Assembly: GCA_041287865.1 (NCBI GenBank)
Contig: JBGGMV010000008.1
Span: 70,297-134,296 of the forward strand
DNA: 64,000 nucleotides
Source of the DNA: Alphaproteobacteria bacterium
GTDB taxonomy: Bacteria; Pseudomonadota; Alphaproteobacteria; Micavibrionales; UBA2020
Direction: 5' to 3'
Part shown: positions 11,839 through 63,994 of the stretch, one piece after another
Position numbering within the stretch: the stretch's first letter is position 1
How the letters are laid out: each line of letters begins with the position of its first letter
Notes under the pieces: generated by a model
Told to the model about the DNA's origin: nothing
Databases searched by the model: none
The model's input: the letters and a program-made list of their open reading frames with translations, nothing else
Position numbers and translations under genes: made by a program

Positions 11839-11909
11839 TATTAATTCTTTCCTAAGATCGTTAACGGCCTCTCCCGGAACGGTTTTAGTCAAAGCAGGGT
11901 GGTGTGCAT

Positions 11910-14027: not shown

Positions 14028-14047
14028 TTTAAAGGATATAACGCGAC

Positions 14048-32291: not shown

Positions 32292-32370
32292 ATTTTTGTG
32301 ATCCCCTGCATCTTTACCTCAGTTGACTTTAAATTAAGAGACACTAGTGTCAATCGCACAAGCGACCGCC

Positions 32371-32538: not shown

Positions 32539-32577
32539 CGGGGCAAGTTTCCGAACGACTATGAAAAGGAATTTGCC

Positions 32578-33708
32578 TTGGAACCAGCCCTGCAAAAAGA
32601 CGCCCCCCTCCTCAAAACGCCCCTCTGGGCGCTCCATACCGCCAAGGGCGGAAAAATGGTGCCCTTCGCCGGCTATGACATGCCGGTGCAGTACGATGGC
32701 CTCGGCGTCCTGAAAGAACACGTTCACACGCGCGAACACGCCGGCCTTTTCGATGTCTCGCACATGGGGCAGGCGATTTTGAGCAGCAGTTCAGGTGATC
32801 CCGCGATCGCGCTCGAAAAAATCGTGCCGGGCGACATTCGCGGGCTCGAAGTCGGCAAGATGCGCTACACCGTTCTGCTGAACGACAAGGGCGGCATCCT
32901 CGACGACCTGATGGTCACGCGCTGGGATGAAAAAACCCTGCTGGTGATCGTCAACGCCGCCTGCAAGGAAAAAGATTTCGCCTATATCAACAAAACCATC
33001 GGCGGCCAGACGAAACTGGAATACCTCGGCACCCGCGCGCTCGTCGCGCTGCAAGGGCCGAAAGCCGAACAGGTGGCCAGCATCTTCTTCCCCGATGTGC
33101 TGGGCATGAAATTCATGTCGGCCACAAAGACGACGTACAAAGGCCACGAGATTTTCCTGTCGCGTTCGGGCTATACGGGCGAAGACGGTTTCGAAATCTC
33201 GATCCCCGGCGGCTTCGCTGAAGCCTTCTGCAAGGAAATGCTGGAGGAACAAGAAGTCAAACTCATCGGCCTTGGCGCGCGCGATAGTTTGCGGCTCGAA
33301 GCCGGCCTTTGCCTTTACGGCCATGATATCGACGAAAACTCCACCCCCATCGATGCGAACCTGAAATGGGTTATCCCGAAACGCCGCCGCGAGGAAGCCA
33401 ATTTCCCCGGTGCCGAGAAAATTCTCAGCCAGCTGTCGGGCGGCACATATATATTGCGCGTCGGCATCAAGCCCGAAGGAGCAGCCCCCATCCGCGAAAA
33501 AACCGAGCTGTTTGTCGGCGACAAAAAGGTCGGCGTGGTGACATCCGGCGGCTTCGGCCCCACCTTCGGCGGCCCTGTCGCCATGGGTTACGTCGATGCA
33601 AACTTTGCCAAGACCGGCACGAAGCTCAACGCCATGCTGCGCGGCACCCCGCGCCCCTGCGAAGTGGCTGCGCTGCCGTTTGTGAAACACAATTACAAAA
33701 AAGATTAA
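32578..33708 (+). CDS. gcvT: glycine cleavage system aminomethyltransferase T
   Basis: LLKTPLWALHTAKGGKMVPFAGYDMPVQY is the typical GcvT N-terminus. I propose the in-frame TTG at 32578, with AAGGA 7 nt upstream. The track ATG at 32500 lies inside riboswitch aptamer 2. Confidence 0.85.
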   Translation: MEPALQKDAPLLKTPLWALHTAKGGKMVPFAGYDMPVQYDGLGVLKEHVHTREHAGLFDVSHMGQAILSSSSGDPAIALEKIVPGDIRGLEVGKMRYTVLLNDKGGILDDLMVTRWDEKTLLVIVNAACKEKDFAYINKTIGGQTKLEYLGTRALVALQGPKAEQVASIFFPDVLGMKFMSATKTTYKGHEIFLSRSGYTGEDGFEISIPGGFAEAFCKEMLEEQEVKLIGLGARDSLRLEAGLCLYGHDIDENSTPIDANLKWVIPKRRREEANFPGAEKILSQLSGGTYILRVGIKPEGAAPIREKTELFVGDKKVGVVTSGGFGPTFGGPVAMGYVDANFAKTGTKLNAMLRGTPRPCEVAALPFVKHNYKKD

Positions 33709-33723
33709 ACGAGGGAAAAACAC

Positions 33724-34098
33724 ATGACGAAAATTCTGTTCAGCGAAGACCATGAATACATCAAGATCGAAAACGGCGTCGGCACGGTCGGCATTTCCGA
33801 CTTCGCGCAAAAGGCGCTGGGCGACGTGGTTTACGTCGAATTGCCGAAGGTTGGCGCGAAGCTGACCAAGGGCGGGCAGGCCGGCGTTGTCGAAAGCGTC
33901 AAATCAGCCTCCGAACTTTATTCCCCCGTCACCGGCGAAGTGGTCGAGATCAACGGCGCGCTGACCGGCGACCCCGCGCTGGTGAACAGCGACCCGCTGG
34001 GCAAGGCCTGGTTCTTCAAGGTGAAAATTGCCAACGAAAACGAACTCACCGGCCTGAAAGACGAGAAAGCGTACAATGACTTCATTAAAGGACTTTAA
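33724..34098 (+). CDS. gcvH: glycine cleavage system H protein
   Basis: 124 aa with the lipoyl-lysine motif [18 protein letters not shown]. Confidence 0.95.
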
Positions 34099-34102
34099 GC
34101 GC

Positions 34103-36988
34103 ATGCCCCAGCCGATCGCAGAACTGGAACAACGAAACGATTTTATCCGCCGTCATATCGGGCCGTCTGAGTCCGATATCGCCGCCATGCTGCGTACGGT
34201 GGGTGCATCGTCACTTGATGATCTGGTCACCAAGGTTCTTCCTGCCGCCATCCGCGAAAAAACCGCGCCCGTCACCGGTGACTCGATGACGGAACATGAA
34301 GCGCTGGCCCTGCTCGACAGCATGGCGAAGCAGAACAAAGTCTACCGCTCGCTGATCGGCACGGGTTACTACGATACGCTAACGCCGAACGTCATTCTGC
34401 GCAACGTGCTGCAAAACCCCGGCTGGTACACGGCCTATACGCCCTATCAGCCCGAAATTTCCCAAGGGCGCCTTGAAGCGCTGATCAATTTCCAGCAAGT
34501 CACGATGGACCTGACGGGCATGCCGCTCGCCAATGCCTCGATGCTTGACGAAGGCACCTCCGCCGCCGAAGCCATGACTTTGGCAAAACGTGTTGGCGGT
34601 TCGGCCAGCAATACTTTCCTTGTGTCGGACGATTGCCACCCCCAGACGATTGCTGTCGTGGAAACCCGCGCCAAGCCGCTGGGTATTCAGGTCGTTGTCG
34701 GTAAAGCCGCTGACCTTGTCGAAAAAGACGGCTTCGCCATCCTGCTGCAATACCCCGGCACGTCGGGCGCAGTTGTCGATTACGCTGCGCTGGCCGCAAA
34801 AGCGAAATCGAAGAATATCGCCGTCGCCGTGGCAACCGATCTTCTCGCGCTTACGCTTCTCAAGCCCCCCGGCGAATGGGGCGCGGATATCGTTTTCGGT
34901 TCGGCGCAGCGCTTCGGCGTGCCGCTCGGCTACGGCGGCCCGCATGCCGCTTTCTTTGCCGCGCAGGATGCCTACAAACGTTCTATCCCCGGCCGCATCG
35001 TCGGCGTTTCGGTCGACAGCAAAGGCAAGCCTGCCTATCGCCTCGCCCTGCAAACGCGCGAGCAGCATATCCGCCGCGAAAAAGCGACGAGCAACATTTG
35101 CACAGCGCAGGTGCTGCTGGCCAATATCGCGGCCTTCTACGCCGTCTATCACGGCCCCGAAGGTCTAAAGACCATCGCCACCCGCACGCACCGTCTTGCC
35201 GCGATTTTCGCGGAAGGCCTCAAGAAACTGGGCTTCCAAGTCACCACCGCGCATTTCTTTGACACCGTGACGGTTGACTGCGGCAAGCACGCGCAGGAAA
35301 TCATTTCCCGCGCGCACCAGAAAGAAATTAACCTGCGCGATTTCGGCGACGGCCGCCTTGGTGTGTCGCTCGACGAAAAATCAACCCGCGCGGAAGTCTT
35401 CACGCTCTGGCAGATCTTCTCTGGCAAGGGCGCGCTGGGCTTCAGCGTCGAGGCGCTTGACGCCAGCGTGCCGGACCAGATTCCGGCTGCGCTGAAACGC
35501 ACCTCGGAATATCTCACGCACCCCACCTTCCACCTCTATCGTTCCGAAACCGATATGCTGCGCTATCTGCGGCATCTGGAACACAAGGATATCGCGCTCA
35601 ACCGCTCGATGATCCCGCTCGGTTCCTGCACGATGAAGCTGAACGCGACAGTCGAGATGATTCCGGTGACATGGCCAGAATTCGGCAATATGCACCCCTT
35701 CGCGCCGCTCGATCAGGCGCAGGGCTATGCGGCCATGCTGAAAGATCTGGAACAGAAACTTTGCACGCTGACAGATTTCGCGGCGGTAACGCTGCAGCCT
35801 AACGCTGGATCGCAGGGCGAATATGCGGGCCTGCTGACCATTCGTGCCTATCACGAATCAAAAGGTCAGGCACACCGCAATATCTGCCTGATTCCCTCGT
35901 CCGCGCATGGCACCAACCCCGCGACCGCCGTTATGGCTGGCATGGAAGTTGTCATCACGGCTTGCGACGACAACGGCAACGTTGACCTTGGCGACCTGCG
36001 CGCGAAAGCGGCGGAGCATAAGGATAAACTGGCCGCCCTGATGGTCACCTATCCCTCCACCCACGGCGTTTTCGAGGAAGAAATCCGCGAGATTTGCAAG
36101 ATCATCCACGACAACGGCGGCCAAGTGTATATGGATGGCGCGAACTTCAACGCCATGGTGGGCCTCGCCTGCCCCGGCAAGATCGGCGCCGACGTCATGC
36201 ACATGAACCTGCATAAAACCTTCTGCATCCCGCATGGCGGCGGCGGTCCCGGCATGGGGCCCATTGGCGTCGGTGAACACCTCGCGCCCTTCCTGCCCGG
36301 CCATCCGCTGCTGGAAGGCGTGGGCGGCGAAAACGCCATCGGCCCCGTATCGGCTGCGCCCTATGGCTCGGCCTCGATCCTGCCGATCAGCTGGGTCTAT
36401 ATCGCGCTGATGGGCACGGAAGGGTTGAAGAAGGCGACGCAGGTCGCCATCCTGAACGCCAACTACATCGCCAAGCGTCTCGAAAAACATTACCCGACCC
36501 TTTATAAGGGCAAGCAAGGTTATGTGGCGCATGAATGTATCCTCGACACCCGCCCGCTGAAAACCTCGGCTGGCATCAGCGTCGACGATATCGCCAAGCG
36601 CCTGATGGATTTCGGCTTCCACGCGCCCACCATGTCCTTCCCCGTTCCCGGCACGCTGATGATCGAGCCGACGGAATCCGAAGGCAAGGCGGAGCTGGAC
36701 CGCTTTATCGAAGCGCTGACCGTTATCCGCGCCGAGATTGCCAAGGTGGAAAAGGGCGAATGGCCGCAGGGCAACAACCCGCTGGCGCTCGCCCCGCATA
36801 CGCTGGCTGACCTGACGGCGGAGAAATGGGATCGCCCCTATACCCGCCACGACGGCGCTTTCCCGGCTGCGCATCTGCTGACGGATAAATACTGGACGCC
36901 CGTCAACCGCATCGACCATGCGGCCGGCGACCGTAACCTCGTCTGCGCCTGCCCGCCGATCGAGGCTTACAGCGAAGCGGCTGAATAA
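34103..36988 (+). CDS. gcvP: glycine dehydrogenase (decarboxylating), P protein
   Basis: About 961 aa from ATG 34103 ([21 protein letters not shown]), with the PLP-lysine region [16 protein letters not shown]. The track start at 34076 would overlap gcvH. Confidence 0.95.
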
Positions 36989-38959: not shown

Positions 38960-39081
38960 CCGCGCTTAATCGCCTTTGAATTCAAGCATATAAAAATCTG
39001 CTCGTTCCCTCTGGCGGAAAACCGGGACGTATAATATGGTTATCTCCCTTACTATCGTACCGTAAGCTTGAGAGGGATTTG

Positions 39082-40164
39082 ATGTCCGCCGGACTGCTCG
39101 CCCTGCTGCAAGAAACCGCCACCGCCACGCAAGGCGCGATGGTCAAAACGACAGGGGTCGTCTGCGACGACCTCGCGGTCAGCTGCAACCAGTTCATCGG
39201 CGGCCAGCCCGACCGCAAAATCCCCATGGTGATGAAGGTCGCCAAACGCTCGCTCATTAACAAAGCCATTTTAATCCCCTCGGCCCTCGCGCTCTCGCTC
39301 ACCTTCCCCGCGGCTATTTTGCCGGCGCTGGCCGTGGGCGGCGCGCTGCTCTGCTACGACAGCATGCACAAGATCACGCACAAGGCCATCAAGCCGCCGC
39401 CCGTCGCGGTGAGCGAAGCCTATGCCAACGACCATGCCGCCTGGGAAAAGCGCCATGTGAAAAGCGCGATGCATACCGACCTTGTCCTTTCGGCCGAGGT
39501 GACGACGGTGTCGCTCTGGAGCGTGACGGGCGCGCCCGTCCTTGTCCAGCTGGGCACGCTGACCGCGACCGGCCTTGCCATGACCGCCGCGGTTTATACG
39601 GCTGTTGCGGCCATCATCAAGATGGATGATGCCGGCGTCGCGCTGGAAAAAGTGAAGGGTAACGGCCTGTTTGCGAAAACCTGCCACAAGGCGGGTAAAG
39701 CCATCGGCCATGTCGCGCCGAAACTGATTAAAACCATCGGCGTCGTCGGCATGGCCGCGATGTTCCTAGTCGGCGGCACGATGCTGGTGCATGGCATTCC
39801 GGGCGGCGAGCATCTGGTCGGTGCCGCCGTGTCGGCCCTTGGCGCGAATGCCGTGGTGCAGGCCGTGGCGGTCGTCGCGCTGCAATTCGGCGTCGGTGTT
39901 GTGGCGGGCATTGCCTCGCTCCCCGTCGCCAAGGTCGTTATCCCCGCCTACAAGAAATCCGTTGCTTGGACGCGCAAGCTGTTCGGCAAGCCCGATATCA
40001 CAAAACCGCTTGCGCAATCACCCCAAGCACCTGAACCCGCGCCGAAGCTTCTGCCGCCCAAGGGCAGCGCCAGCACGGCGCTCAATGCCGCTGTCAGGCT
40101 GGACGCGCCCGCCAACGACACGCAGGCAAAACCCGTCCTTGCCGCAAAACCGCCCAAGCCATAA
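39082..40164 (+). CDS. DUF808 (YedI-like) inner-membrane protein, divergent paralog 1
   Basis: MSAGLLALLQETATATQGAMVKTTGVVCDDLAVSCNQF...IPMVMKVAKRSLINKAILIP parallels the DUF808 N-terminus. It has a Pro/Lys-rich C-terminal extension. Confidence 0.7.
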   Translation: MSAGLLALLQETATATQGAMVKTTGVVCDDLAVSCNQFIGGQPDRKIPMVMKVAKRSLINKAILIPSALALSLTFPAAILPALAVGGALLCYDSMHKITHKAIKPPPVAVSEAYANDHAAWEKRHVKSAMHTDLVLSAEVTTVSLWSVTGAPVLVQLGTLTATGLAMTAAVYTAVAAIIKMDDAGVALEKVKGNGLFAKTCHKAGKAIGHVAPKLIKTIGVVGMAAMFLVGGTMLVHGIPGGEHLVGAAVSALGANAVVQAVAVVALQFGVGVVAGIASLPVAKVVIPAYKKSVAWTRKLFGKPDITKPLAQSPQAPEPAPKLLPPKGSASTALNAAVRLDAPANDTQAKPVLAAKPPKP

Positions 40165-40166
40165 AA

Positions 40167-40206
40167 AGCTATCCCCGTATTGATCAGGGGCAATACGGGG
40201 ATAGCT
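40167..40206. terminator. perfect 16-bp-stem hairpin, probable terminator
   Basis: AGCTATCCCCGTATTG (40167-40182) pairs with CAATACGGGGATAGCT (40191-40206). On the minus strand it is followed by TTTTAT. It sits between convergent genes. Confidence 0.6.
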
Positions 40207-40244
40207 GTCATTGCGCCGGGATGGAGTCCTTGGCGGCGCAAATC

Positions 40245-40436
40245 CTAGCGCGTGTCGCGTGTCGCGTCTTTCATTTCGTGTGCAAGATCTTTTGTGGCGT
40301 CGGTTACATTGTCGATCGCCCGGCCGATTTTCGCACCGGGGGTCTGCGACTGGTAATCGTGCCGTTCATAAGCCAGCAGCCCGATAACGGCCAAAAGTAC
40401 CACAATCACAATCGCCATAGCGTTTTCGTTGCGCAT
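40245..40436 (-). CDS. small single-TM hypothetical protein
   Basis: 63 aa. TM segment AIVIVVLLAVIGLLAY is followed by a hydrophilic tail. The hairpin lies downstream. Confidence 0.4.
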   Translation of the reverse strand: MRNENAMAIVIVVLLAVIGLLAYERHDYQSQTPGAKIGRAIDNVTDATKDLAHEMKDATRDTR

Positions 40437-40505
40437 GATGGTCCTCCTGTTTCTGGTGAACAGTATCCTTCAACAGGACAAACAGGAGGCAGAGCAAAGA
40501 GTTCC

Positions 40506-41246
40506 CTAACGCACGTTTCCGATCGAATTCTTGACCGTGTCATGCTTGATTTTGGGCATCGGCGGGGGCTCGGGAATGCGCGAAGGCTCGGCAGGCGTGG
40601 GCGTGCTGTTTTTCAGCGTGCCCAATTGGCGGCAATCGATATTGGGGTTGGGACAGGGTTTTTTCTGCGTTAATCCTTCGGGCGCCTGCGGGCCTTTTTG
40701 TTCCGCATGGCGCTGACGGGCGCGTTCGACCCGTTCGGCGTGCCGGCGGCGGCGTTCTTCCTCGATCTTGCGCTGGCGGGCTTCGCGGGCCGCCTCGCGG
40801 CGTCTTTCCTGTTCCGCACGCTGGCGCAGGCGTTCCAGCCTTGCCTGCTGGCGGCGCTCGGCCGCTTCGCGCTCGGCTTTCATACGGGCAAGGCGTTCCT
40901 CGATGCGGCGGCGTTTCAGGGCCTCGCGCTCGCGCTTCAGCTCTTCCTTCAGGGTTTTCTCGGCCTCGCGCAGGGCGTCCTTTTTCAGGCGGTCATCGTT
41001 CATGTCCTTCAACATGTCTTTCATGTCCTTGCGGGCGTCTTCGGAGATAAGGCTGAACATCAACTGGATGGCGTCCTCGACGGGCATCTTGCTGAAATCG
41101 ATGCCCGCGGGGCTCTGAGCCTGTTTCTGCCCCTGTACCGGCGCGGCGACAACGGTGGAGGCGCCCAATCCCGCCTTGGCGGGCTGGGCGGCGGGGGCGG
41201 CGGGGGTGAACAACAGCAGGGCAATGAAAAGGGCGGCGAGGCGCAT
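40506..41246 (-). CDS. secreted Arg/Glu-rich (ER/K-like) coiled protein
   Basis: Signal peptide MRLAALFIALLLFTPAAPAAQPA. A long charged helix segment follows: RRIEERLARMKAEREAAERRQQARLERLRQRAEQERRREAAREARQRKIEEERRRRHAERVERARQRH. Confidence 0.65.
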   Translation of the reverse strand: MRLAALFIALLLFTPAAPAAQPAKAGLGASTVVAAPVQGQKQAQSPAGIDFSKMPVEDAIQLMFSLISEDARKDMKDMLKDMNDDRLKKDALREAEKTLKEELKREREALKRRRIEERLARMKAEREAAERRQQARLERLRQRAEQERRREAAREARQRKIEEERRRRHAERVERARQRHAEQKGPQAPEGLTQKKPCPNPNIDCRQLGTLKNSTPTPAEPSRIPEPPPMPKIKHDTVKNSIGNVR

Positions 41247-41464
41247 AAAAATACTCCATGAAGATAGGGAAGATTAGCCCTTCTGCGTGACCGAAACAGC
41301 CCCGAATCTTAACGGCAGCCAGACCCCGAATGGTGCGTCCATAATTGTGGTATCATGATACTAAATATCTGATTTATAATGTTAATTACGATACTTCTTT
41401 CCAAGCCCATTAAAACCCCGTACCCTATTTACCTAACAGGCTCAACAACCCGAGGAGGACTATT

Positions 41465-42652
41465 TTGGCTGCTACCGGACTACTTGCGATCCTTGATGAT
41501 ATTGCAGCGATGACGAAGATTGCGGCCAAGAAGACCGCCGGCATCGCAGGCGACGATCTGGCGGTGAACGCGCATGCGGTGGCGAACGGCAAGGGCGGGA
41601 TCGACCCCAAGCGCGAGCTGCCCATCGTCTGGGAAATTGCCAAGGGTTCCTTCAAGAACAAGTTCCTCTACCTGATCCCGGGCGCGATGCTGCTGACGGC
41701 CGTTGCCCCCTGGGCGATCCCCCCGCTGATGATGGCGGGCGGCGCCTTCCTCTGCTACGAGGGCATCGAGAAAGTCATCCACAAGAAAGGCAAGGACTCG
41801 GACGAGGAAAAACGCCTGCTTGCCGAAATGGATTCAAAAGAGCTTGAAAAGAAAAAGATCGCCGGCGCGATCAAGACCGACGTGATCCTTTCCGCCGAAA
41901 TCGTCGTTGTGACGCTGGGCGCGATCGCAGGTTCTACGTTATTGGTGCAGGCGGCCACGCTGGCCGCCGTCGGCGTCATCATGACGGTCGGCATTTACGG
42001 CCTTGTCGGCGGCCTAGTGAAGCTCGACGATATCGGCCTGCACCTGCAGAAGAAAGAAGGCGACGGTTTCGGTGCGAAATGCCAGCGCACGCTCGGCAAA
42101 TGCCTTGTGAAAGGCGTACCGCCCTTTATGAAATGCCTTTCGGTCGTCGGCACCGCCGCCATGTTCGCGGTGGGCGGCGGTATTATATTGCACGGCATCC
42201 CGATGCTGGGCCATGCGGTCGCGGGCCTTGCCCATGCCGCAACCTCGATCCCCGTTGTCGCGGGCCTGATTGAATCGGGCATTGCGATTGCGGCCGGCGT
42301 TGCAACCGGCTTTGCCGCTATCCCTGCCGTCAAGGCGATCTCGAAGCCGCTCGGCAAGGTGATGGAAGTCTGCAAGAACGCCGTCGACATCGTGAAAGAC
42401 GCCATGACGCGCATCCCCCTGCTCAACAAGCTGGTGAAAAAACCCGTAGCCGCGAACGAGAACAAACCGCTCTCCGCGCCGAAGAAGCCCGAGGCAGCAC
42501 CCGCCCTTGCCAATGCGCCCGACCTGACCGCCAAACATGCCAAGGCCGCCAAGCCCGCGCCCAAAGTGGTGCCGGAGCCGCCCCCGCCCGCGCATTACCC
42601 GCCGCCCGGCGAGTTCCAGAAAGAACTGAAACAGAACCGCTATAACGGCTAG
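41465..42652 (+). CDS. DUF808 (YedI-like) inner-membrane protein, paralog 2
   Basis: TTG start with GAGGAGG 7 nt upstream. AATGLLAILDDIAAMTKIAAKKTAGIAGDDLAVNAHAV...ELPIVWEIAKGSFKNKFLYL is the canonical DUF808 N-terminus. It carries an about 90-aa Pro/Lys-rich extension. Confidence 0.8.
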   Translation: MAATGLLAILDDIAAMTKIAAKKTAGIAGDDLAVNAHAVANGKGGIDPKRELPIVWEIAKGSFKNKFLYLIPGAMLLTAVAPWAIPPLMMAGGAFLCYEGIEKVIHKKGKDSDEEKRLLAEMDSKELEKKKIAGAIKTDVILSAEIVVVTLGAIAGSTLLVQAATLAAVGVIMTVGIYGLVGGLVKLDDIGLHLQKKEGDGFGAKCQRTLGKCLVKGVPPFMKCLSVVGTAAMFAVGGGIILHGIPMLGHAVAGLAHAATSIPVVAGLIESGIAIAAGVATGFAAIPAVKAISKPLGKVMEVCKNAVDIVKDAMTRIPLLNKLVKKPVAANENKPLSAPKKPEAAPALANAPDLTAKHAKAAKPAPKVVPEPPPPAHYPPPGEFQKELKQNRYNG

Positions 42653-42706
42653 CTTCACAAAAGCTTCAAATTAGGGCATTCTTTGCTTCCAACGAGAGGA
42701 TGACCC

Positions 42707-43633
42707 ATGGCCGGCGGCGGCTTGCTTGCATTACTGGACGATATCACCGTGCTGCTCGACGACATCGCCGCGATGTCGAAGGTGGCGGCGGTAAAGACCT
42801 CCGGCATCGTCGGCGACGACCTTGCCGTGAACGCGCAGGCGCTTGTAGGCCTCGATCCGAAACGGGAATTACCCATCGTCTGGCGCGTGGCCAAGGGCTC
42901 GCTGAAAAATAAATTCATCCTCGTCCCGACCGCCCTGCTCCTGTCCGCCTTTGCCGAATGGGCGATCACGCCGCTGCTGATGATCGGCGGCGCGTTCCTC
43001 TGCTACGAGGGCGCCGAAAAGATCATGCACGCGATCAAGCCCGACGCCGCCGACAAGCGGCACGAAAAGGAACTGATCGAAGCCGGTCACCTGAGCGCGA
43101 AATCGGTCATGGAGGTCGAGAAGGAAAAAATCGGCGAGGCCGTGAACACCGACTTCATCCTTTCCGCCGAAATCATCGCCGTCGCGCTGGGCTCGGTCAA
43201 GGAAATGAGCTTTGCCGTGCAAACGGGCGTCCTGGCGGGCATCGGCATCGGGATGACTGTCTTTGTGTACGGCCTAGTCGGCTGCATCATCAAGCTTGAC
43301 GATCTCGGCATGTGGCTCGCCAAGAAGAAAAGCCGCGCGGCGCAGAAACTGGGCCTCTGGATACTGAAGGCCATGCCCTATTTCATGAAGACGCTGACCG
43401 TCGTCGGCACCATCGCCATGTTCGCGGTGGGCGGCGGCATCATCCTGCACGGCATCCCTGCTGTTAAAGACGCGATGCACCACTGGAGCAGCTGGATCTC
43501 CGTCCCCTCCACCATTGTCGCAGGCCTGATCATCGGCTTCCTCTGCATCCCCGTCGCCCATGTGCTGGCCAAGCCCTTTGGCAAGATCATGAAGGCCGTC
43601 AAAAAGGCGATGCCGAAATTCAAGAAAGCCTAG
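42707..43633 (+). CDS. DUF808 (YedI-like) inner-membrane protein, paralog 3
   Basis: 308 aa, the canonical family length, starting MAGGGLLALLDDITVLLDDIAAMSKVAAVKTSGIVGDDLAVNAQAL. Confidence 0.85.
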   Translation: MAGGGLLALLDDITVLLDDIAAMSKVAAVKTSGIVGDDLAVNAQALVGLDPKRELPIVWRVAKGSLKNKFILVPTALLLSAFAEWAITPLLMIGGAFLCYEGAEKIMHAIKPDAADKRHEKELIEAGHLSAKSVMEVEKEKIGEAVNTDFILSAEIIAVALGSVKEMSFAVQTGVLAGIGIGMTVFVYGLVGCIIKLDDLGMWLAKKKSRAAQKLGLWILKAMPYFMKTLTVVGTIAMFAVGGGIILHGIPAVKDAMHHWSSWISVPSTIVAGLIIGFLCIPVAHVLAKPFGKIMKAVKKAMPKFKKA

Positions 43634-48970: not shown

Positions 48971-51900
48971 ATGGCTGACGCCATCACTTCGTTTTTCCTG
49001 CTGCAGGCGAACCGTAGCGGTTCCGCCAGTGCCCAGATCGCGCCTTCCGCGCTCGAGCTGGGCTCCGACACGCTGACCCGCAATCCGCGTCTTGAGACGC
49101 TGGGCAAGCTTTTCGCCCCGCCCTCGGGCGCCAGCAATATTGCGGGGCTCGACAGTTTCCTCGCCGTCGCCACCGCTGCGAAAACAGCCGCCGGTGCCCC
49201 CGCCAGAAATTCCAAAGATGCGCTGAAACAGGCACCGGAACTGAGGAAGAACGACAGCGCAGCGCTCGACGTCTTCATCAAGCGCGAAACGGCGGCTGAA
49301 TCCCGCCTGAAGCAGCTGTTGCAGGCGTCGACCGCAGCCGCCGCAACCTCTACTACCAGCAAACCTGCCGAAACCGAGGCGGCAACAGCGGCAGCTTCCA
49401 TCACCCGCAACAGCGGGCTGCGCATCACGGAAGGCGGCGACGGCATTATCAACAGCCGGCGCCTGAACACCAATATTCCGGGCGCACGACCGCAGGATAT
49501 TATCTATACCGTCAACGAAAGCCCGCGTAACGGCAGGCTGGAACTGACAGCAAAGCCCGGCGAAGCGGTAACGACCTTCACCCAGCAGGACCTCAACCTC
49601 GGCCGCCTGCGCTACGTCAGCAACGGGTCGGAGGCACGCGGCGACAGTTTCGATTTCACGGTCAGGGGCGGCGAACAGGAACTGTCAGGCAGCTTTGGCA
49701 TCAGCGTAGCGCCGGTCAACGATGCGCCGGCGGTTTCCGTGAACACAGGTTTGACAGTCGCGGAAGGCGACACGGCGACGCTGACGACGGCGCAGCTCTC
49801 GGTCAGCGACCCTGACAGCCGCGCCGAGGATACCGTCTTCACGGTTACCGGCGGCCCGCAGCACGGACGGCTGGAATACGCCGCCAGCCCGGGCCTCGCC
49901 ATCACCAGCTTTACCCAGGGCGACATCGCCGCAGGGCGCGTGCGCTACGTGAGCGACGGATCGGAAGTCACCTCCGACAGCTTCACCTTCACCGCCAGCG
50001 ACGGCATCAGCGCGACGGCGGCCGAGACCTTCAACATCAATGTCACCCCCGTTGACGACAGCGCGACGATTGTCAACAACACCGGCGCGACGGTGACCGA
50101 AGGCGGCTCCGCGGTGCTTAGCGAAACGCAGCTGTCATCAACCGACGTCGACACGGCGGTCGAGGATATTATCTACAATGTGACCTCGGGCCCCTCCGGC
50201 GGCTATCTCGAATTCACCGATAACGCCGGCACGGCGATCACGTCCTTCACGCAGGCCGACGTCAATTCGGGACGCGTCCGTTATGTGCATGGCGGCGGCG
50301 AAGCGCCCGCCGACAGCTTCAACTTTACCGTGACCGGCAGCACCGCCACCACGGCCTCCGCAAGCTTTGCCTTCACCGTCACCCCTGTCGATGACGCCCC
50401 GCAGCTGCAGGCCAACACTGGTGCGACATTGAACGAAGGCGGCACGACCGCGATAACGGCGGCGCAACTGTCCGTCTCCGATGTCGACACCGCCGCCAGC
50501 GGCATCGTCTACAATATCACCGCAGGCCCTCAGCACGGTCGGCTGGAATATGCCTCCAGCCCCGGCACCGCCGTCACCAGCTTTACGCAGGCCGATATCG
50601 ATTCCGGCAGAATCGTTTACATCCATGACGGATCGGAAACCACGTCGGACAGCTTTACCTTTACCGCCGCCGACGCGACCACGACGCTGGGCGCTTCGTC
50701 CTTCGCGCTGAACGTTACGCCGGTCGACGATGCGCCGGTGATTACAAACACCGACGGCACGGTGGTGGAGGGCGGAACCAGCACCATCACATCTTCACAA
50801 CTGGGCGCGTCAGACCCCGATACGGCAGCCGCGAATATCACCTACACAGTCACCGCCGCGCCGACAACCGGACGGCTTGAAAACGCGACGAACCCGGGCG
50901 TGTCGATCACCAGCTTCACGCAGGCCGATATCGACGCGGGCAATATCCGCTTCGTCCACGACGGCGGCGAGGCCCCGACGTCAAGCTTCGGCTTCTCGGT
51001 TTCCGACGGCACGACGACGCAGGCCGGCAATACCTTCACCTTCGGCGTCATCCCGGTCGACGACGCGCCGGTGCTGGCGGCGAATACCGGCGGCACGCTG
51101 GCAGAGGGCGGATCGAGCATCATCACATCTGCCCAACTGCGCACGACAGACGTCGATACGGCGGCTGCGAATATCACCTATACAGTTACATCGGGCCCGA
51201 CAAACGGCCAGCTGGAAAGAACGACCAACCCGGGTGTCGGCATCACCAGCTTCTCGCAGGCCGATATCGACGCGGGCCGCATCCGCTTCGTCCACAACGG
51301 CAGCGAAACGACGACGGCCAGCTTCGGCTTCTCCGTTTCCGACGGCACGACCACGCAGGCCGGCAATACCTTTGGTTTCAGCGTTACGCCGGTCGATGAT
51401 GCGCCGGTGCTCACGAATACCGGCGGCACGATTGCGGAGGGCGGATCAAGTATCATCTCGTCGTCGCAGCTGCGCGCAACCGACCCCGATACGGCAGCCG
51501 CCAATATCACCTATACCGTCACCGCCGCCCCCACCACCGGACGGCTTGAAAGCGCGACGAACCCGGGCGTGTCGATCACCAGCTTCACGCAGGCCGACAT
51601 CGACGCAGGCCTCATTCGCTTCGTCCACAACGGCGGCGAGGCGCCGACGGCCAGCTTCGGCTTCTCCGTTTCCGACGGCACGACGACGCAAGCGGGCAAT
51701 ACCTTCACCTTCGGCGTCACGCCCGTCAACGACGCACCGGTGCTGGCGACGAATACGGGCACAAGCGTCGCAAGGCGCGATACCACGACCATTACATCGG
51801 CGCAGCTGCAAACGACGGATGTCGATAATACCCCGTCAAGCCTTACCTATACCGTCACCGCCAGCCCGACGCGCGGCAGGCTGGAACTCTCCACCAACCC

Positions 51901-52060
51901 CGGCGTTAGCATCACTTCATTCACCCAGGCCGACATCGACGCCGGCCGCCTGCGCTATGTGCATACAGCAAATGGCGCCGCGAACGATTCCTTCACCTTC
52001 ACCGTCTCGGACGGCGCGGCATCGATCGCCGCCTCCAGCTTCGCCATCGATGTGACGTAA
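48971..52060 (+). CDS. large cadherin-like (CSPG-type) repeat protein
   Basis: 1029 aa. An about 147-aa Ala/Ser/Thr-rich N-terminal region is followed by eight about 111-aa repeats (NTGxTVxEGG..ITxxQL...DxDT....I.YTVT..P..GRLE....PG..ITSFTQADIDAGRIRFVH.G.E....SF.F.VSDG......F.F.VTPVDDAP). No signal peptide and no RTX or other C-terminal domain. GGAG lies 5 nt upstream of the ATG. Confidence 0.85.
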   Translation: MADAITSFFLLQANRSGSASAQIAPSALELGSDTLTRNPRLETLGKLFAPPSGASNIAGLDSFLAVATAAKTAAGAPARNSKDALKQAPELRKNDSAALDVFIKRETAAESRLKQLLQASTAAAATSTTSKPAETEAATAAASITRNSGLRITEGGDGIINSRRLNTNIPGARPQDIIYTVNESPRNGRLELTAKPGEAVTTFTQQDLNLGRLRYVSNGSEARGDSFDFTVRGGEQELSGSFGISVAPVNDAPAVSVNTGLTVAEGDTATLTTAQLSVSDPDSRAEDTVFTVTGGPQHGRLEYAASPGLAITSFTQGDIAAGRVRYVSDGSEVTSDSFTFTASDGISATAAETFNINVTPVDDSATIVNNTGATVTEGGSAVLSETQLSSTDVDTAVEDIIYNVTSGPSGGYLEFTDNAGTAITSFTQADVNSGRVRYVHGGGEAPADSFNFTVTGSTATTASASFAFTVTPVDDAPQLQANTGATLNEGGTTAITAAQLSVSDVDTAASGIVYNITAGPQHGRLEYASSPGTAVTSFTQADIDSGRIVYIHDGSETTSDSFTFTAADATTTLGASSFALNVTPVDDAPVITNTDGTVVEGGTSTITSSQLGASDPDTAAANITYTVTAAPTTGRLENATNPGVSITSFTQADIDAGNIRFVHDGGEAPTSSFGFSVSDGTTTQAGNTFTFGVIPVDDAPVLAANTGGTLAEGGSSIITSAQLRTTDVDTAAANITYTVTSGPTNGQLERTTNPGVGITSFSQADIDAGRIRFVHNGSETTTASFGFSVSDGTTTQAGNTFGFSVTPVDDAPVLTNTGGTIAEGGSSIISSSQLRATDPDTAAANITYTVTAAPTTGRLESATNPGVSITSFTQADIDAGLIRFVHNGGEAPTASFGFSVSDGTTTQAGNTFTFGVTPVNDAPVLATNTGTSVARRDTTTITSAQLQTTDVDNTPSSLTYTVTASPTRGRLELSTNPGVSITSFTQADIDAGRLRYVHTANGAANDSFTFTVSDGAASIAASSFAIDVT
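49412..52057 (+). repeat. eight tandem about 333-336-nt coding repeats
   Basis: Repeat boundaries are marked by V[DN]D[AS][AP] at aa 249, 360, 473, 585, 696, 808 and 919. Units 5-7 (about 50738-51736) are near-identical at protein level. Confidence 0.85.
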
Positions 52061-54728: not shown

Positions 54729-55304
54729 TTAAACCGGCTTTTTTACTTTCAGCGTTTTCATGAGTTTGGGATTGCCGACCGGCGCCACCGCCTGCGCGAC
54801 TGCGTTGTCGATGCTTGCGGCGTTCAGGGCCCGGGTTTCGGCGGTGTCGCAAATCTTGAGAATGGCTTGCAGGTTTTTAGCCGATATATCGACATTCTGC
54901 AGACGCCAGACATCACCCGGGCGAATCTTGCTGTCATCAGAGGTTTTCCAGTTCATTTTAGGGGTGGGCCCGACCCAGAGCTCCGCGCAGATATCGGTTG
55001 TATAGGCAAAGCCCTTCAGGCGCTCGGTTTTGTCGGCGTAGTCTTCAAGATGCTTTTTCTGCTTTTCGCGCAGCGCGTCGACTTTTTCCAATACCGCCTG
55101 AATGCCGGAGTGGTCTAAAACGCCCCTCTCCTCCGTCGCTATCCCGTACCTGCCGCCCGTCATCGCGCCGCTGGCCACATTCGTATTGAAAAGCCACGAA
55201 AAGAAATCCCGCTTGTGCCGCGGCTCCTTCTTCAAATGATATTCCTCGGTGCCGGTGACGCGGAGGATAAAGGTTACTTCCTGCGGCGGTTTTTGCTCCA
55301 TCAT
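54729..55304 (-). CDS. hypothetical protein with C-terminal tail motif (paralog A)
   Basis: 191 aa with no signal peptide. It is paralogous to the upstream gene (VLDHSGIQAVLEKV vs PLDHSTIGKVFETV; ISAKNLQAILKICDT vs ITAENLAAFIALFDT). It ends ...KLMKTLKVKKPV. Confidence 0.65.
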   Translation of the reverse strand: MMEQKPPQEVTFILRVTGTEEYHLKKEPRHKRDFFSWLFNTNVASGAMTGGRYGIATEERGVLDHSGIQAVLEKVDALREKQKKHLEDYADKTERLKGFAYTTDICAELWVGPTPKMNWKTSDDSKIRPGDVWRLQNVDISAKNLQAILKICDTAETRALNAASIDNAVAQAVAPVGNPKLMKTLKVKKPV

Positions 55305-55305
55305 C

Positions 55306-55902
55306 TCAGGGGCTCTTCCTGATCTGCAGCGCCTTCATCGGCTTCACGTCGCGCACGGGTTCGACCGCGCTGCTGATGGCGGCCTTGACCGCAAGTGCCT
55401 GCGCGGCCTGATCGGCAAGGCGCTTGTCCCGCGTGTCGAACAGCGCGATAAAGGCGGCGAGATTTTCGGCGGTGATCTGTTCTTCCTGGAACAACCTGGC
55501 GCCGGTCGCGCCGCCCTTGGTCCAGAGCTCCTGCGGGTTGAAATGGCGGGGGACGAACTGGTCTTTCCTGCCGGCCCAGACCTGCGTTATCGTCTCGCTC
55601 CAGTAATCGAAGTCGTCGCGCGACGGGGTTTGCGCTTTGTCGATGCGCGTTTTCATGGCGGCGGTTTTTGCGGCGACGGTTTCAAAAACCTTGCCGATCG
55701 TGGAATGATCGAGCGGGCCCTGCCCCGATTCCATCGAGCTGCCCTCGATCGCATGCCAGCCCTTTGGCGCGCGGCGGCCGAAAATTTTCGCGAGGCCTTT
55801 GCGCTCCGGGATCTTCATTGCATTGCGGTAACGGCCCAGCACTTCGACAACGAAGACCAGTTCATCGGCAGGTTTTTCGGCGCTGGGCGCATCGGCAGCC
55901 AT
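55306..55902 (-). CDS. hypothetical protein with C-terminal tail motif (paralog B)
   Basis: 198 aa with AAGGAG at 55918-55913. It ends ...VKPMKALQIRKSP. Its stop lies 1 nt before paralog A's start. Confidence 0.65.
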   Translation of the reverse strand: MAADAPSAEKPADELVFVVEVLGRYRNAMKIPERKGLAKIFGRRAPKGWHAIEGSSMESGQGPLDHSTIGKVFETVAAKTAAMKTRIDKAQTPSRDDFDYWSETITQVWAGRKDQFVPRHFNPQELWTKGGATGARLFQEEQITAENLAAFIALFDTRDKRLADQAAQALAVKAAISSAVEPVRDVKPMKALQIRKSP

Positions 55903-57373: not shown

Positions 57374-58015
57374 TTACTGGTCGAACTGTTTGAGGCGGAT
57401 TGTTTTGACAGGGACAGGCGCGCCCGCGCCGCCATAGACGGCGGACGAAATTTCCGCCTGCAATGCGGCTTCCTTTTCTTCCTTCGCAATACGCGCGACT
57501 TCGGAGAAGTGGAAGGCGATGCTGTCGGCGACTTTCTTGCCGGCGGGCCAGCGCGTATCTTCTTCGCCGCGCTGATAGATATTCCGGTGCTGCGCATCCT
57601 CCACCATCGGGTCGGCGCCGTGCCTGACCAGCCAGAGCGCGCGGTCGGTCGTATTGTCACGCAGGTCCATGTTGTAGGCCCAGTGCAGCGGGGTCATGCC
57701 CTTCTCGCCCGCCTTCAGGTTCACGTCGGCCCTGGCATCTTTCACCAGCCATTCGGCGACGTCATAGCGGCGTTCCATCAACGCGCGCACCAGCGGGCCT
57801 TCGCCGTCGTCATCGACGACATTGGCTTCGGCCCCGTAATTGAACAGCAGCTTCGCCATGTCGAGATCGCCGCGCCATGCCGCGTGGAACAAGGCCGTGC
57901 GGCCGTTCACATCCGTCGCGCCCGCATCGGCCTTTTCGGCCAGAAGTTCTTCGGCGCGGCCGGTATTGCCGTCCTTCACCGCCTTCATCAGCATTTCGTC
58001 GAATTTGCGCGCCAT
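57374..58015 (-). CDS. ankyrin-repeat protein
   Basis: GRTALFHAAWRGDLDMAKLLFNYGAEANVVDDDGEGPLVRAL and GMTPLHWAYN are ankyrin repeats. It ends ...VPVKTIRLKQFDQ. Its stop lies 1 nt before the epmA start. Confidence 0.85.
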   Translation of the reverse strand: MARKFDEMLMKAVKDGNTGRAEELLAEKADAGATDVNGRTALFHAAWRGDLDMAKLLFNYGAEANVVDDDGEGPLVRALMERRYDVAEWLVKDARADVNLKAGEKGMTPLHWAYNMDLRDNTTDRALWLVRHGADPMVEDAQHRNIYQRGEEDTRWPAGKKVADSIAFHFSEVARIAKEEKEAALQAEISSAVYGGAGAPVPVKTIRLKQFDQ

Positions 58016-58099: not shown

Positions 58100-58143
58100 G
58101 TCTAATTTTGACCTATAGTCGCGGGATTAAGACAGGGATTCTC

Positions 58144-58860
58144 ATGACTCGCACTATTGATGCCCAACTGGTTGAAGAAGCACTCGCCGAAATCGCCCTC
58201 GTCGACACGGGTGGCCAGATGGCCAAAGTGATAGAGGACGCGCGCCATGAAGCCTGCATATCACGGCACTGCGAATACGACGTCAAACCCGCAAGCCTTG
58301 CGCTCCTCATCACCGGCAGCGACAAGGCCTGCGAAACGCTGGCCAAAGCCTATACCAAGGCTCTTTACGGTTTGGGGCTGATCGACGGCAAGGCCGGCAA
58401 TCCCGCGTCCAAAACCATCGACTGGACAGGGCAGATCTGCGACAACGAAGCCAGCCGCACCATGCAGGAGCAGAGCTGGGCCAGCCGCAAAATGACGGAG
58501 GCCGGCAAGGCGGCGCGCAGCGGCACGCTGGTCATTCGCGACATCCACCGCAAGCCTTATGAAGGCTCTCCCGACGAGGCCGAGGCCTCCGGCCCCGCCC
58601 TGAAAGGCGCTCTGGAAGCCGTCACGGAATTCGTCACCAAAGGCACCTGGGGCCCCCGCACCCCCGTCGTCGTGCTGACCGGGCCCGAGGTCGAAACCCG
58701 CGCCTTTATCGCCGCAACGCCGGAATTAGCCAAGCTTTTCAACAATAAATCCGTGTACGCCGACGCCTGCCCGCCGCTGCCGGAGGTCTATTCGACCGAA
58801 CTGGAAAGCCCGATCACCACCCGCCGCCCGCTGACCTTCAAGCCGCGCAACATTTCTTGA
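58144..58860 (+). CDS. hypothetical protein, degenerate AAA+ (CbxX/SpoVK-like) fold by eye, with C-terminal tail motif
   Basis: 238 aa from ATG 58144. LALLITGSDKACETLAKAYTKALYGLGLI occupies the position of Walker A (GxxGxGKT is lost), SGTLVIRDIHRK that of Walker B (DE is lost), and PVVVLTGPEVETRAFIAATPELAKLF that of sensor 1 and the following helix. It ends ...TTRRPLTFKPRNIS. Confidence 0.6.
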   Translation: MTRTIDAQLVEEALAEIALVDTGGQMAKVIEDARHEACISRHCEYDVKPASLALLITGSDKACETLAKAYTKALYGLGLIDGKAGNPASKTIDWTGQICDNEASRTMQEQSWASRKMTEAGKAARSGTLVIRDIHRKPYEGSPDEAEASGPALKGALEAVTEFVTKGTWGPRTPVVVLTGPEVETRAFIAATPELAKLFNNKSVYADACPPLPEVYSTELESPITTRRPLTFKPRNIS

Positions 58861-61562: not shown

Positions 61563-62069
61563 GTGCCTGCCAACGTGAGATACATATTATTTTTCCTGTT
61601 TTTCCTGATCGTTTCCGGCTACACCGCCTTCACTTTTTGGGAAAATGATTTTTATTTAAAAGCCTTGCCTTCCCATTTGGGTGTGCAAGAAATTTTAAAA
61701 AAACAAAGCGAAGGTTCCTTTCGGGAGTCATGCGGCGGCGTTATCTTCCAGCTCTCGAAGTCAACAATCTCGGCAATTAATAAAGAAGGCGTTACGTTCC
61801 TCAATCGGGACTTATATGGACGGGGTTATCAGGAAAAAAACGATAGAGAGCGCGCATACTACACTTACAACAAATGGACAAAAACACCCATCAAACTTAC
61901 CGACGGATTATCGCCAGGAATGCATTGTCTGCTGAAAGACGACAAGGATATGGCGAAAAAAGTTAGATTCGCCGCGCAGCATGAAGGCTCCTTTTACACC
62001 GTAAAAAGCGAGGCTGAACTGCTTCTCATACCCGAACTCGGGCTTTTGTTTTATGCATACTTTGGTTAG
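61563..62069 (+). CDS. hypothetical membrane-anchored protein, low GC
   Basis: GTG start and the N-terminal hydrophobic segment ILFFLFFLIVSGYTAFTFW. GC is about 40% on two hand-counted 60-nt lines, against about 60% for the surroundings. It occupies the position where trmD is expected. Confidence 0.5.
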   Translation: MPANVRYILFFLFFLIVSGYTAFTFWENDFYLKALPSHLGVQEILKKQSEGSFRESCGGVIFQLSKSTISAINKEGVTFLNRDLYGRGYQEKNDRERAYYTYNKWTKTPIKLTDGLSPGMHCLLKDDKDMAKKVRFAAQHEGSFYTVKSEAELLLIPELGLLFYAYFG

Positions 62070-62167: not shown

Positions 62168-62752
62168 TTAGGGGTGGCTACTCTGCGGCTGCTTCAGCTT
62201 CACCACCTTCATCGGCGTGACGGCTTCGCCTGTCACGACGGGCGCGGCGGCGGCCTTGAAATCTTTTCCCGCGTCCAGCGTGCGGAGCAGCTGCGCCCGC
62301 GCCGCGGCAAGCTCTTCGGGCGGGCGGGTGGCGAGAATTCTGTCGCCGTTATGGGCGAAGTAGCGATCAATGCTCTCCGCGCTGCCCTTGACGATTCCGG
62401 CGCCAGCCGCAGAACCCATCGTCGTGATCAGGCCGCCGATGCAGAACAGCCCGGAGGCGATCCCCGCCTCCATCAGCTTGACCGTCAGCAGCCAGGATAT
62501 GAACGCCGGCACTGACACCGCAAGATAAAGCGCGCCGAAGGTCGCGGCAGCCGAGCAGATAAGCCCTCCCACCGCCATCATATTGGCATGCGCGACAAAT
62601 CCCTTCCTGACGCGCGGCGCGACCGGCCTGAGCAATTCGGCGGGGCCTGTCCTGCAGTTGTTGTATAACTCGCGGTGCATGCCGCAGAGAGGCGAATTCC
62701 ACAGCCATTTTGCAGCCCCCTGCATTTTTTCCAGCACGTCCCACGTTTTCAT
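62168..62752 (-). CDS. hypothetical protein with central bilobed hydrophobic domain and C-terminal tail motif
   Basis: 194 aa. The about 60-aa hydrophobic block is MMAVGGLICSAAATFGALYLAVSVPAFISWLLTVKLMEAGIASGLFCIGGLITTMGSAAGAGIV. It ends ...VTPMKVVKLKQPQSSHP. The start overlaps the upstream paralog's stop (ATGA). Confidence 0.7.
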   Translation of the reverse strand: MKTWDVLEKMQGAAKWLWNSPLCGMHRELYNNCRTGPAELLRPVAPRVRKGFVAHANMMAVGGLICSAAATFGALYLAVSVPAFISWLLTVKLMEAGIASGLFCIGGLITTMGSAAGAGIVKGSAESIDRYFAHNGDRILATRPPEELAAARAQLLRTLDAGKDFKAAAAPVVTGEAVTPMKVVKLKQPQSSHP

Positions 62753-63327
62753 GGCGCGGCCTCCGTCTGGCCCGGATGCTTCAGCTTCAGCGCCTTCATC
62801 GGCGTCACCGCCGCGCCGGTCGTCACGTCCGCGCTGCGGTTAAAAATCCCTTTCGCGGGTTTCGGCAGCGGCGCGGGCGCCTCGTTGGGCGGCAGCAGAG
62901 TAGTGCCCGGCTGAAGCGCTTCGAGATCGCGCTCGAAAAGGAAATAACGTTCGGTGCGGCGCGCGGATTTGCGCATCGCGCCCACCGCCACGGTCAGCGC
63001 CGCCAGCGCGGCCGTCGCCGCGAAAACCGGCAGCGCGGCGGCCGTGACCGTCGTCGCCGCGTAAACCAGCGCCGCCATCTTGAGGACCTGGTCGCCCGCC
63101 AGCACCGCGCCCGCGAAAGCCGTCATGCCCGAGGCCATGGTGCCCTGCAGGTAATACTGCGGAATGTGTTTGCGGCAGGCGTCGAGCGCACGATCGGCAA
63201 GTTTCTCACCGGCCTCGTGCAGCGGTTGCAGCACGCGCCACGGGCCACGCAGCCATGCGTCGCGGCTGCCCTTGCGGACAGCGTCAACGGTCGGCTGCAT
63301 AAACTGCGGCATCTTCATCAGGGGCAC
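62749..63327 (-). CDS. hypothetical protein with central hydrophobic domain and C-terminal tail motif (paralog)
   Basis: 192 aa. The hydrophobic block is MTAFAGAVLAGDQVLKMAALVYAATTVTAAALPVFAATAALAALTVAVGAM. It ends ...VTPMKALKLKHPGQTEAAP. Confidence 0.7.
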   Translation of the reverse strand: MPLMKMPQFMQPTVDAVRKGSRDAWLRGPWRVLQPLHEAGEKLADRALDACRKHIPQYYLQGTMASGMTAFAGAVLAGDQVLKMAALVYAATTVTAAALPVFAATAALAALTVAVGAMRKSARRTERYFLFERDLEALQPGTTLLPPNEAPAPLPKPAKGIFNRSADVTTGAAVTPMKALKLKHPGQTEAAP

Positions 63328-63414
63328 ACACTTTCTTTTGCCGCCTGTTTTCTTGTGCCGTTTTTTTCAGGCAACGGCTTTTACAGGCTTGATAAACCTA
63401 CCAAAGCCGGATGC

Positions 63415-63424
63415 GTTATGTCAA
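63415..63424 (-). promoter_or_regulatory. TTGACATAAY promoter box
   Basis: On the minus strand: TTGACATAAC, an 18-nt spacer, then TAGGTT (63400-63395). It lies upstream of ATG 63327. Confidence 0.55.
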
Positions 63425-63451
63425 TTAAAATGGGGGCCAAAGGCCTTAAAA

Positions 63452-63994
63452 TCAGGGCTGCTTTTTCAGCTTCGTGACCGGCAGCAGGGTGATGCGGTCT
63501 TTTGTGCCGTTGCCCATGGCGTTTACTTCTTCGGCCAGTTTCTGGCGCGCCGCTTCTTTTTCCTGCGCGGGGTAGACGTCGGTGTAAATCTGCGTGCCGA
63601 TGGCGTCGTCGGGCAGCAATAGAACGGCGAAGGTGGAGGGCGGCAGGGCCTCGGCGGGATCGGCCTTGTGGATGCGGTTCCAGTCGATGTCGATGCCCTT
63701 GTTGCCGCGGCGGATGGCGCGGGGGTGTAGCGCGACGGGATCGTTTTCGTGGTGCGTGGCTTCCATCAGCGCGACGGCGCCCTCGGGCAGCGGCGCGGGC
63801 GGTTCCTGCCCCAGCGTGATCTGCCAGAAGTTTTTCCATTCGCTTTGCGTGCGCACCGCCATGCCGATCGTGCCCGAGCCCTTGGTGTAAGGCCCCGTAA
63901 TAAAATTGCCGCCGTTGATCTGCGGCAGTTTATTGCCGAAGGCGCGGCGGACGCGGGATCTTTCGTCCTTTATGTCGATGTTTGTGAAGTCCAT
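63452..63994 (-). CDS. hypothetical protein with tail-like C-terminus, 5' end possibly outside window
   Basis: At least 180 aa. The frame stays open to the window edge upstream of Met 63994. It ends ...DRITLLPVTKLKKQP. Confidence 0.6.
   Translation of the reverse strand: MDFTNIDIKDERSRVRRAFGNKLPQINGGNFITGPYTKGSGTIGMAVRTQSEWKNFWQITLGQEPPAPLPEGAVALMEATHHENDPVALHPRAIRRGNKGIDIDWNRIHKADPAEALPPSTFAVLLLPDDAIGTQIYTDVYPAQEKEAARQKLAEEVNAMGNGTKDRITLLPVTKLKKQP

Follow-up and report, generated by a model that had tools for sequence, protein, structure and literature searches.

The window analyzed in this study was a stretch of 64,000 nucleotides from an alphaproteobacterium (contig JBGGMV010000008.1). 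Near its end, three genes on the minus strand, here called A (62168–62752), B (62749–63327), and C (63452–63994), encode small proteins with similar C-terminal tails. An earlier note on this DNA treated the tail as a trait of the A/B/C family and read A and B as translocated effectors of the kind of the chlamydial Inc proteins. The tail was found instead to be a clade-wide motif, and five of its bearers are ankyrin-repeat proteins. This position-specific, clade-specific, protein-level motif is common to accessory proteins that are unrelated to one another, some soluble and others membrane-embedded. It resembles an address label not described before, most likely one for export. This clade-wide C-terminal tag is the more important feature of the DNA, beyond what the earlier note saw.

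The tail motif was defined as [KR]-x-[LIVFM]-[KRQT]-[LIVFM]-[KR] within the last 16 residues. It was present in 10 of the 53 genes of the window, whereas 17,589 internal positions gave a single match. With looser variants counted, one in C and one in an ankyrin protein (9054–9791), the bearers numbered 12: five ankyrin-repeat proteins, four orphans, and A, B, and C, about a fifth of the local genes. The end of the motif usually lay 1–9 residues before the C-terminus, and once 20 residues. A reading of the tail as a dilysine KKxx signal was rejected because this distance varies. The same range of 1 to 20 residues speaks against a C-terminal degron or quality-control tag that would hold the levels of accessory proteins low, since terminal degrons usually need a free end, and it is hard to see why about 20% of the local genes, ankyrin proteins included, would share one degron. 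Basic-hydrophobic C-terminal degrons are known, for example the SulA tail recognized by Lon, and the motif is likewise short, unstructured, and strictly C-terminal. On balance, the degron explanation was given very little credence. No description of the motif was found in the searchable literature.

Relatives of the window were found by an Ffh search, with one genome per species. The search placed the window in an uncultured alphaproteobacterial clade, with 71–92% identity to the nearest relatives. These are metagenome-assembled genomes (MAGs) labeled 'uncultured Micavibrio sp.', Alphaproteobacteria, or Rhodospirillales; the Ffh identity to Roseomonas and Skermanella was 60–64%. Since the motif had been defined after the tails were seen, the tail was examined on independent data, with a matrix made from 11 window tails alone and applied to the other species. 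At 14 bits or more, the matrix recognized the C-termini of 9 of 320 clade genes (loci L002, L007, L017, and L019) and 0 of 965 outgroup genes. The maximum over 11,526 internal control windows was 10.2 bits. The cross-species consensus was V-x-[VM]-[KR]-[P/T/A]-hydrophobic-K-hydrophobic-[KR]-x-P. In orthologs, the protein diverged outside the tail but preserved the tail's residue classes, and the codons and 3′ flanks differed. In more distant clade members the tail degenerated, for example to ATARFRRPQP and LTIRRRGTPSP. A repeated DNA element was ruled out as the source of the tails, as the codons differ and the 3′ flanks are unrelated.

The net charge of the last 20 residues was +2 to +5 in tail bearers. 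Their mean of +3.25 compared with +0.67 for a set of 30 annotated genes (p = 2e-4). Bearers could be told from other genes by charge only, and not by the composition of the last 50 residues. No bearer matched a housekeeping Pfam family, and all genes of the window with a housekeeping Pfam match were without the tail. When the bearers were inspected by eye without a predictor, no signal-peptide-like N-terminal hydrophobic stretch was visible in any of them.

As the earlier note had described, the tails of A and B are near-identical and that of C is related. The tail of A is AVTPMKVVKLKQP (residues 177–189; 62186–62224, minus strand), 5 residues from the C-terminus, and that of B is AVTPMKALKLKHP (residues 173–185; 62773–62811, minus strand). 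The tail of C is ITLLPVTKLKKQP (residues 168–180; 63455–63493, minus strand); the ortholog of C in L002, the sister MAG (Ffh 92%), keeps this tail (ITLMPVTKLKKK), with a low position-specific scoring matrix score of 7.0 bits. Among the ankyrin-repeat proteins, the one at 57374–58015 (minus strand) carries PVPVKTIRLKQFDQ, and its L002 ortholog ends in VTVRPFKLKTPGA. The protein at 23695–24558 (plus strand) carries VKVRPFRLKM, and that at 9054–9791 (plus strand) the variant IPVRKPFVFKH. Two adjacent ankyrin-repeat genes occupy 2–1377 (plus strand). The first (2–556), cut by the window start, has the tail TMKTLKIKK..., and the second (544–1377) has AAKRLKLKIPTTS.

Among the orphans, the protein at 58108–58860 (plus strand) carries RRPLTFKPRNIS, and five orthologs from metagenomes (54–88% identity) keep the tail. 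A sixth match to this orphan, P0012 (355 aa), is a fragment of a major facilitator superfamily transporter fused to the C-terminal half, probably an assembly chimera. Two adjacent paralogous orphans lie at 54729–55902 (minus strand), with the tails KPMKALQIRKSP (55306–55902) and LMKTLKVKKPV (54729–55304); L002 has three tail-bearing paralogs of this pair. The remaining orphan (19582–20016, minus strand) carries AMKPIKFKPPGQ.

The open reading frames (ORFs) of A, B, and C were found where the earlier note had placed them. A encodes 194 residues, of which 1–55 are hydrophilic and 56–121 form the hydrophobic block; the C-terminal region that carries the tail is again hydrophilic. B has its own N-terminal domain and a block at residues 62–118, and its C-terminal module is a homolog of the one in A. 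B is 192 residues long from the GTG at 63327, or 189 residues from the ATG at 63318 in an independently annotated ENA contig from this organism. The reported ATGA overlap (62749–62752, minus strand) was read directly from the sequence, with the ATG of A at 62752–62750 and the TGA of B at 62751–62749. This overlap of the B stop and the A start is translational coupling. A GGAGG lies 8 nt upstream of the A ATG. The GC content at third codon positions of A, B, and C was 0.79–0.82, matching other window genes.

A and B had been described as paralogs, which holds for the C-terminal ~72 residues (BLASTP E 6e-7; hhalign probability 94%, E 1e-7). The similarity is confined to this part, and the N-terminal domains are unrelated to each other. 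The promoter proposed upstream of B stood only in part. The hexamer TTGACA is present in the gap between C and B (63424–63419, minus strand), but the best candidate −10 element, TAGGTT (63395–63400), 18 nt downstream, matches at only 3 of 6 positions, and a consensus promoter scan did not call the pair.

The hydrophobic block of A (62390–62587, minus strand) forms two lobes split at K92–E95 and is 48% Ala/Gly/Ser/Thr. That of B (62974–63144, minus strand) is split at D79–K83 into two lobes, the first short and the second of 35 aa, and is 58% Ala/Gly/Ser/Thr. The blocks are flanked on both sides by K/R-rich segments in both proteins, and neither protein has an N-terminal hydrophobic (Sec-type) signal. 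The claimed architecture, a bilobed central block between soluble ends without a Sec signal, was therefore correct for A and B. A further gene of the cluster, D (239 aa), has a hydrophobic block at about residues 43–110. It lies between C and trmD just outside the window, on the ENA contig L001, which encodes A exactly. The C-terminus of D, RPERPPGLDKKP, is basic and does not match the tail motif, and D has no detectable relation to A. C (180 aa, minus strand) is soluble, with a variant tail and no hydrophobic segment.

Hydrophobicity was estimated as a simple sum of the Hessa scale over the best 19-residue segments. The best segments of the cluster blocks gave +0.5 to +1.6 kcal/mol, versus −3.6 to +1.3 for resident membrane proteins. 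The cluster blocks are marginally hydrophobic, with 41–58% Ala/Gly/Ser/Thr, and on this scale the first lobe of B falls short by itself. The AlphaFold model of A, built on a 3-sequence alignment, had helices at 46–91 and 97–142 and a disordered tail at a mean predicted local distance difference test (pLDDT) score of 46. The single-sequence model of C had a pLDDT of 40. The prediction of the transmembrane hairpin expected by the earlier note is thus marginal. Marginal hydrophobicity of the block would fit proteins that must escape co-translational insertion.

The reading favored here, at a probability of about one half, is that the tail would be an uncleaved C-terminal export signal and that A and B would be exported membrane-inserting effectors. 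Export of the tail bearers is suggested because they lack Sec signals, are accessory and fast-evolving, include five ankyrin-repeat proteins, and have C-termini more basic than those of annotated genes. For A and B, the exported-effector reading is plausible because their tail is also carried by the five ankyrin-repeat proteins. The tail would act as an uncleaved recognition signal for protein export. Since both flanks of the block are K/R-rich, A and B may form a hairpin with the N- and C-termini in the cytoplasm, where the tail would be reachable by a cytoplasmic receptor. Export would bring A, B, and D to the target membrane of a host or prey cell, into which they would insert, and the same machinery would carry C and the ankyrin proteins as soluble cargo. 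Mechanistically, the nearest parallel may be the positively charged C-terminal signal read by a type IVA coupling protein. Signals of type IVA substrates are often C-termini with a positive charge, and 1–2 transmembrane segments with short loops occur in about one third of type IV effectors (PMC12981334). The C-termini of the tail bearers, with a charge of +2 to +5 and disordered in the low-confidence model of A, agree with the unstructured, positive C-terminus expected in the last ~20–30 residues of such substrates.

Several points weigh against the export reading. Domain scans found no secretion-system gene within the 64-kb window, and Micavibrio aeruginosavorus, the type species, is reported to have type I and II systems with 'no evidence' of type III or IV (PMC3189940); the attribution to type IV is therefore by analogy. 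Export itself is also inferred from analogy. The motif was defined after the tails had been seen, although it was cross-validated on other species. In a fair comparison of all segments, the hydrophobicity of the blocks did not differ significantly from that of resident membrane proteins (p = 0.07). Both structure models are of low confidence and too poor for fold searches.

A type I route for the tails was considered unlikely. The C-terminal ~50 residues of type I substrates are rich in the residues LDAVTSIF, poor in KHPMWC, and usually acidic (PMC3417381), whereas the tails have 14–32% KHPMWC and a net positive charge. A protein of the window with a C-terminus typical of type I substrates is the cadherin-like 1029-aa protein at 48971–52060, with 80% LDAVTSIF, 2% KHPMWC, and a charge of −2. 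It contains eight Cadherin_3 repeats, Cadherin_4, and Big_9, and orthologous fragments are present at the same place in relatives.

The serious rival among localization, holin-like, and degron explanations is a localization or lipid-binding tag. A, B, and D would then be resident inner-membrane proteins, and the tail an intracellular localization or partner-binding motif without export, for example a cationic strand on anionic lipid or a polar scaffold. The alternating pattern of Lys and hydrophobic residues would form an amphipathic cationic strand, the blocks do not fall significantly below resident membrane proteins in hydrophobicity, and the missing export machine in the window and the reported lack of type III and IV systems in the type species also suit this explanation. 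Integral membrane proteins, however, need no lipid-binding tail, yet A and B share the motif with soluble ankyrin proteins. Every bearer is an accessory, fast-evolving gene without a housekeeping domain, and ankyrin-repeat abundance tracks eukaryotic host association (PMC3932732). Residence in the inner membrane was accordingly regarded as possible but on the unlikely side.

The distribution of the cluster genes also bears on residence. No homolog of known housekeeping function, which the earlier note had named as a finding against its reading, was detected for A or B in Pfam, NCBIfam, PHROGs, or homology searches. Scans of A–D against Pfam, NCBIfam, and PHROGs gave nothing above threshold. 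An exhaustive HMMER search for A over 1.84 billion representative proteins returned 2 true relatives, both L002 genes, and not the broad conservation with a known function expected of a housekeeping inner-membrane protein. A third match, P0005, was rejected as a spurious repeat protein. In word-indexed homology searches, A and C each retrieved nothing beyond the query. With the C family, nothing above threshold was found in a PDB profile search, and a JGI metagenome scan found no relatives.

In L002, the whole cluster lies at the same junction in the order B, A, a second A paralog, D, and C. This is the only locus with A homologs (9880–10470 and 9236–9883), and its B homolog is at 10467–11075 (E 4e-44). 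The families of A, B, and D are orphans that occur in just two species, each with its own gene order. Such a pattern is typical of accessory, fast-evolving cargo. Homologs of C were found at the same junction in L002, L003 (two copies), L004, L005, L006, L007, L009, L017, and L019. Since C alone has junction homologs across these loci, C is the oldest resident of the rimM–trmD junction, and A, B, and D are recent additions.

The earlier note placed the block where trmD–rplS would be expected, and contig L001 indeed has trmD and rplS on the other strand immediately beyond D. On the rimM side, a 168-aa ORF (61563–62069, plus strand) with an N-terminal membrane anchor lies directly after rimM and is a member of the insertion. 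Its GC content is 43.6%, versus 59.5% for the window; it has no tail, and no homolog was found in any of the loci compared. As D, C, B, A, and this ORF all lie there, a five-gene insertion of ~3.3 kb splits the usual rpsP–rimM–trmD–rplS run. The block is an accessory cluster, restricted to its lineage and inserted at the rimM–trmD junction of a bacterium whose nearest relatives are MAGs labeled Micavibrio, and the junction behaves as an insertion hotspot. In L002, a GIY-YIG ORF (7459–7746) holds the position of the 168-aa low-GC ORF. Between rimM and the C ortholog, L007 (12792–13037) and L017 (12775–13026) have a small glycine-zipper protein of 81–83 aa ending in ...GAGAGAVAGYVYDQ....

An insertion hotspot beside a 43.6% GC ORF, whose place in L002 is taken by a GIY-YIG ORF, could also suggest that a mobile element entered between rimM and trmD and that the cluster encodes its small membrane-permeabilizing proteins, holin-like or toxin-like. 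The small two-segment hairpin architecture suits this explanation, as does the weak match of B to Phage_holin_3_6 (PF07332; E 0.0044, 17.5 bits). That match lies below the Pfam cut-off of 28.4 and covers the hydrophobic stretch only. PHROGs yielded nothing meaningful, no endolysin, integrase, or other phage gene is adjacent, and C is kept at the junction across ten loci in nine related species. The tail on the ankyrin proteins would also be left unexplained. A mobile-element origin of this type was judged highly unlikely.

Other features of the window and the clade were recorded. Four large paralogs (589, 593, 707, and 540 aa) at 7195–15670 have PG_binding_1, SLT-like, or CHAP domains and proline- and lysine-rich C-termini, such as KPAVTPVKPKAKH. 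A clear signal peptide is present only in the first and a membrane anchor in the second, and the ankyrin gene 9054–9791 lies among them. By analogy with Bdellovibrio self-protection (PMC4686830), this set may serve to attack cell walls, with an ankyrin protein as partner. A glycine riboswitch (71.6 bits) at 32364–32453 lies upstream of the gcvT–gcvH–gcvP operon (32500–36988). Three DUF808 membrane-protein paralogs lie within 4.5 kb (39079–43633), interrupted by a coiled-coil Arg/Glu-rich secreted protein (40506–41246); the third paralog has the lysine-rich end KIMKAVKKAMPKFKKA. The 173-aa ORF at 5458–5979 is a monotonous VF/AV-rich hydrophobic repeat with no family match and may be spurious. 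Upstream of ffh in L017 (6452–9076), four tandem paralogs (205–235 aa) have hydrophobic tails such as FACASFMGVDLW. They are a different expanding family with its own conserved C-terminus.

The tail is a short, scorable C-terminal motif on about a fifth of the regional genes, so candidate exported proteins could be listed clade-wide from sequence, and the list could be paired with the reading machine via phylogenetic profiling. A shared address label on ankyrin and small membrane-inserting proteins is a testable entry to how Micavibrio-like bacteria act on prey or hosts. If the tail is a localization tag instead, it is still a new clade-specific targeting signal. A bolder version of the export reading, in which the tail would be the signal of a new effector-delivery route in this clade related to the epibiotic predator Micavibrio, is speculative and rather improbable. 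One motif would then mark a set of ankyrin, orphan, and hairpin effectors, and A, B, and D would insert in the prey or host membrane, possibly as a feeding conduit.

The cluster was compared with known systems of small membrane proteins and C-terminal signals. Class II holins resemble the cluster proteins as small hairpin membrane proteins with a charged C-terminal domain, and B has the weak sub-threshold Pfam match. The cluster proteins are, however, twice the usual size, no lysis-cassette partners were found adjacent to them, only B gave a match (17.5 versus 28.4 bits), and the tail is shared with non-membrane proteins.

In Inc proteins, a single bilobed hydrophobic domain of ~40–60 aa interrupts a small, otherwise soluble chain, and both ends are predicted to face the same side of the membrane. 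The blocks of A (56–121) and B (62–118) have this form of two segments and a short loop, with marginal hydrophobicity and a weak first lobe in B. This bilobed block of ~60 aa in an otherwise hydrophilic small protein was the basis of the literal earlier reading, in which A and B are type III-secreted inclusion membrane proteins. Neither Pfam nor NCBIfam linked the two proteins to an Inc family by sequence, the organism is alphaproteobacterial rather than chlamydial, and no type III genes were seen in the 64-kb window. Inc proteins occur in Chlamydiae and carry N-terminal type III signals, whereas the conserved signal-like feature here is C-terminal; the cluster blocks are also longer (57–68 aa) and richer in Ala and Gly. 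The Inc identity was therefore dropped as hardly credible. The broader idea of translocated effectors keeps the support of the topology, the lack of a housekeeping homolog, and the tail shared with ankyrin proteins, although the hairpin is marginal.

The C-terminal signal of Agrobacterium VirB/D4 substrates, reportedly described by Vergunst in 2005, is R-x7-R-x-R-x-R. Like the tail, this signal is net positive, has alternating basic residues in the last ~20 residues, is uncleaved, and occurs on unrelated proteins. The tail differs in the use of Lys instead of Arg, in the conserved hydrophobic residues between the basic residues, in the Pro residues flanking the core, and in its restriction to one uncultured clade.

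The type IV transmembrane effectors of Legionella, Coxiella, Brucella, and Rickettsia are small proteins with 1–2 moderately hydrophobic segments, a short loop, and no Sec signal (PMC12981334). A and B are likewise small, have a short loop and no Sec signal, and may have segments of reduced hydrophobicity. The unstructured C-terminal signal of type IV effectors is common to soluble effectors, including ankyrin-repeat proteins, as the tail is here (PMC12981334). In contrast to the loose charge or composition bias of type IV signals, the tail is a defined linear motif; its bearers have no homology to known effectors. By analogy, the mode of action of the cluster would be that of Inc proteins or type IV transmembrane effectors, without membership in an Inc family.

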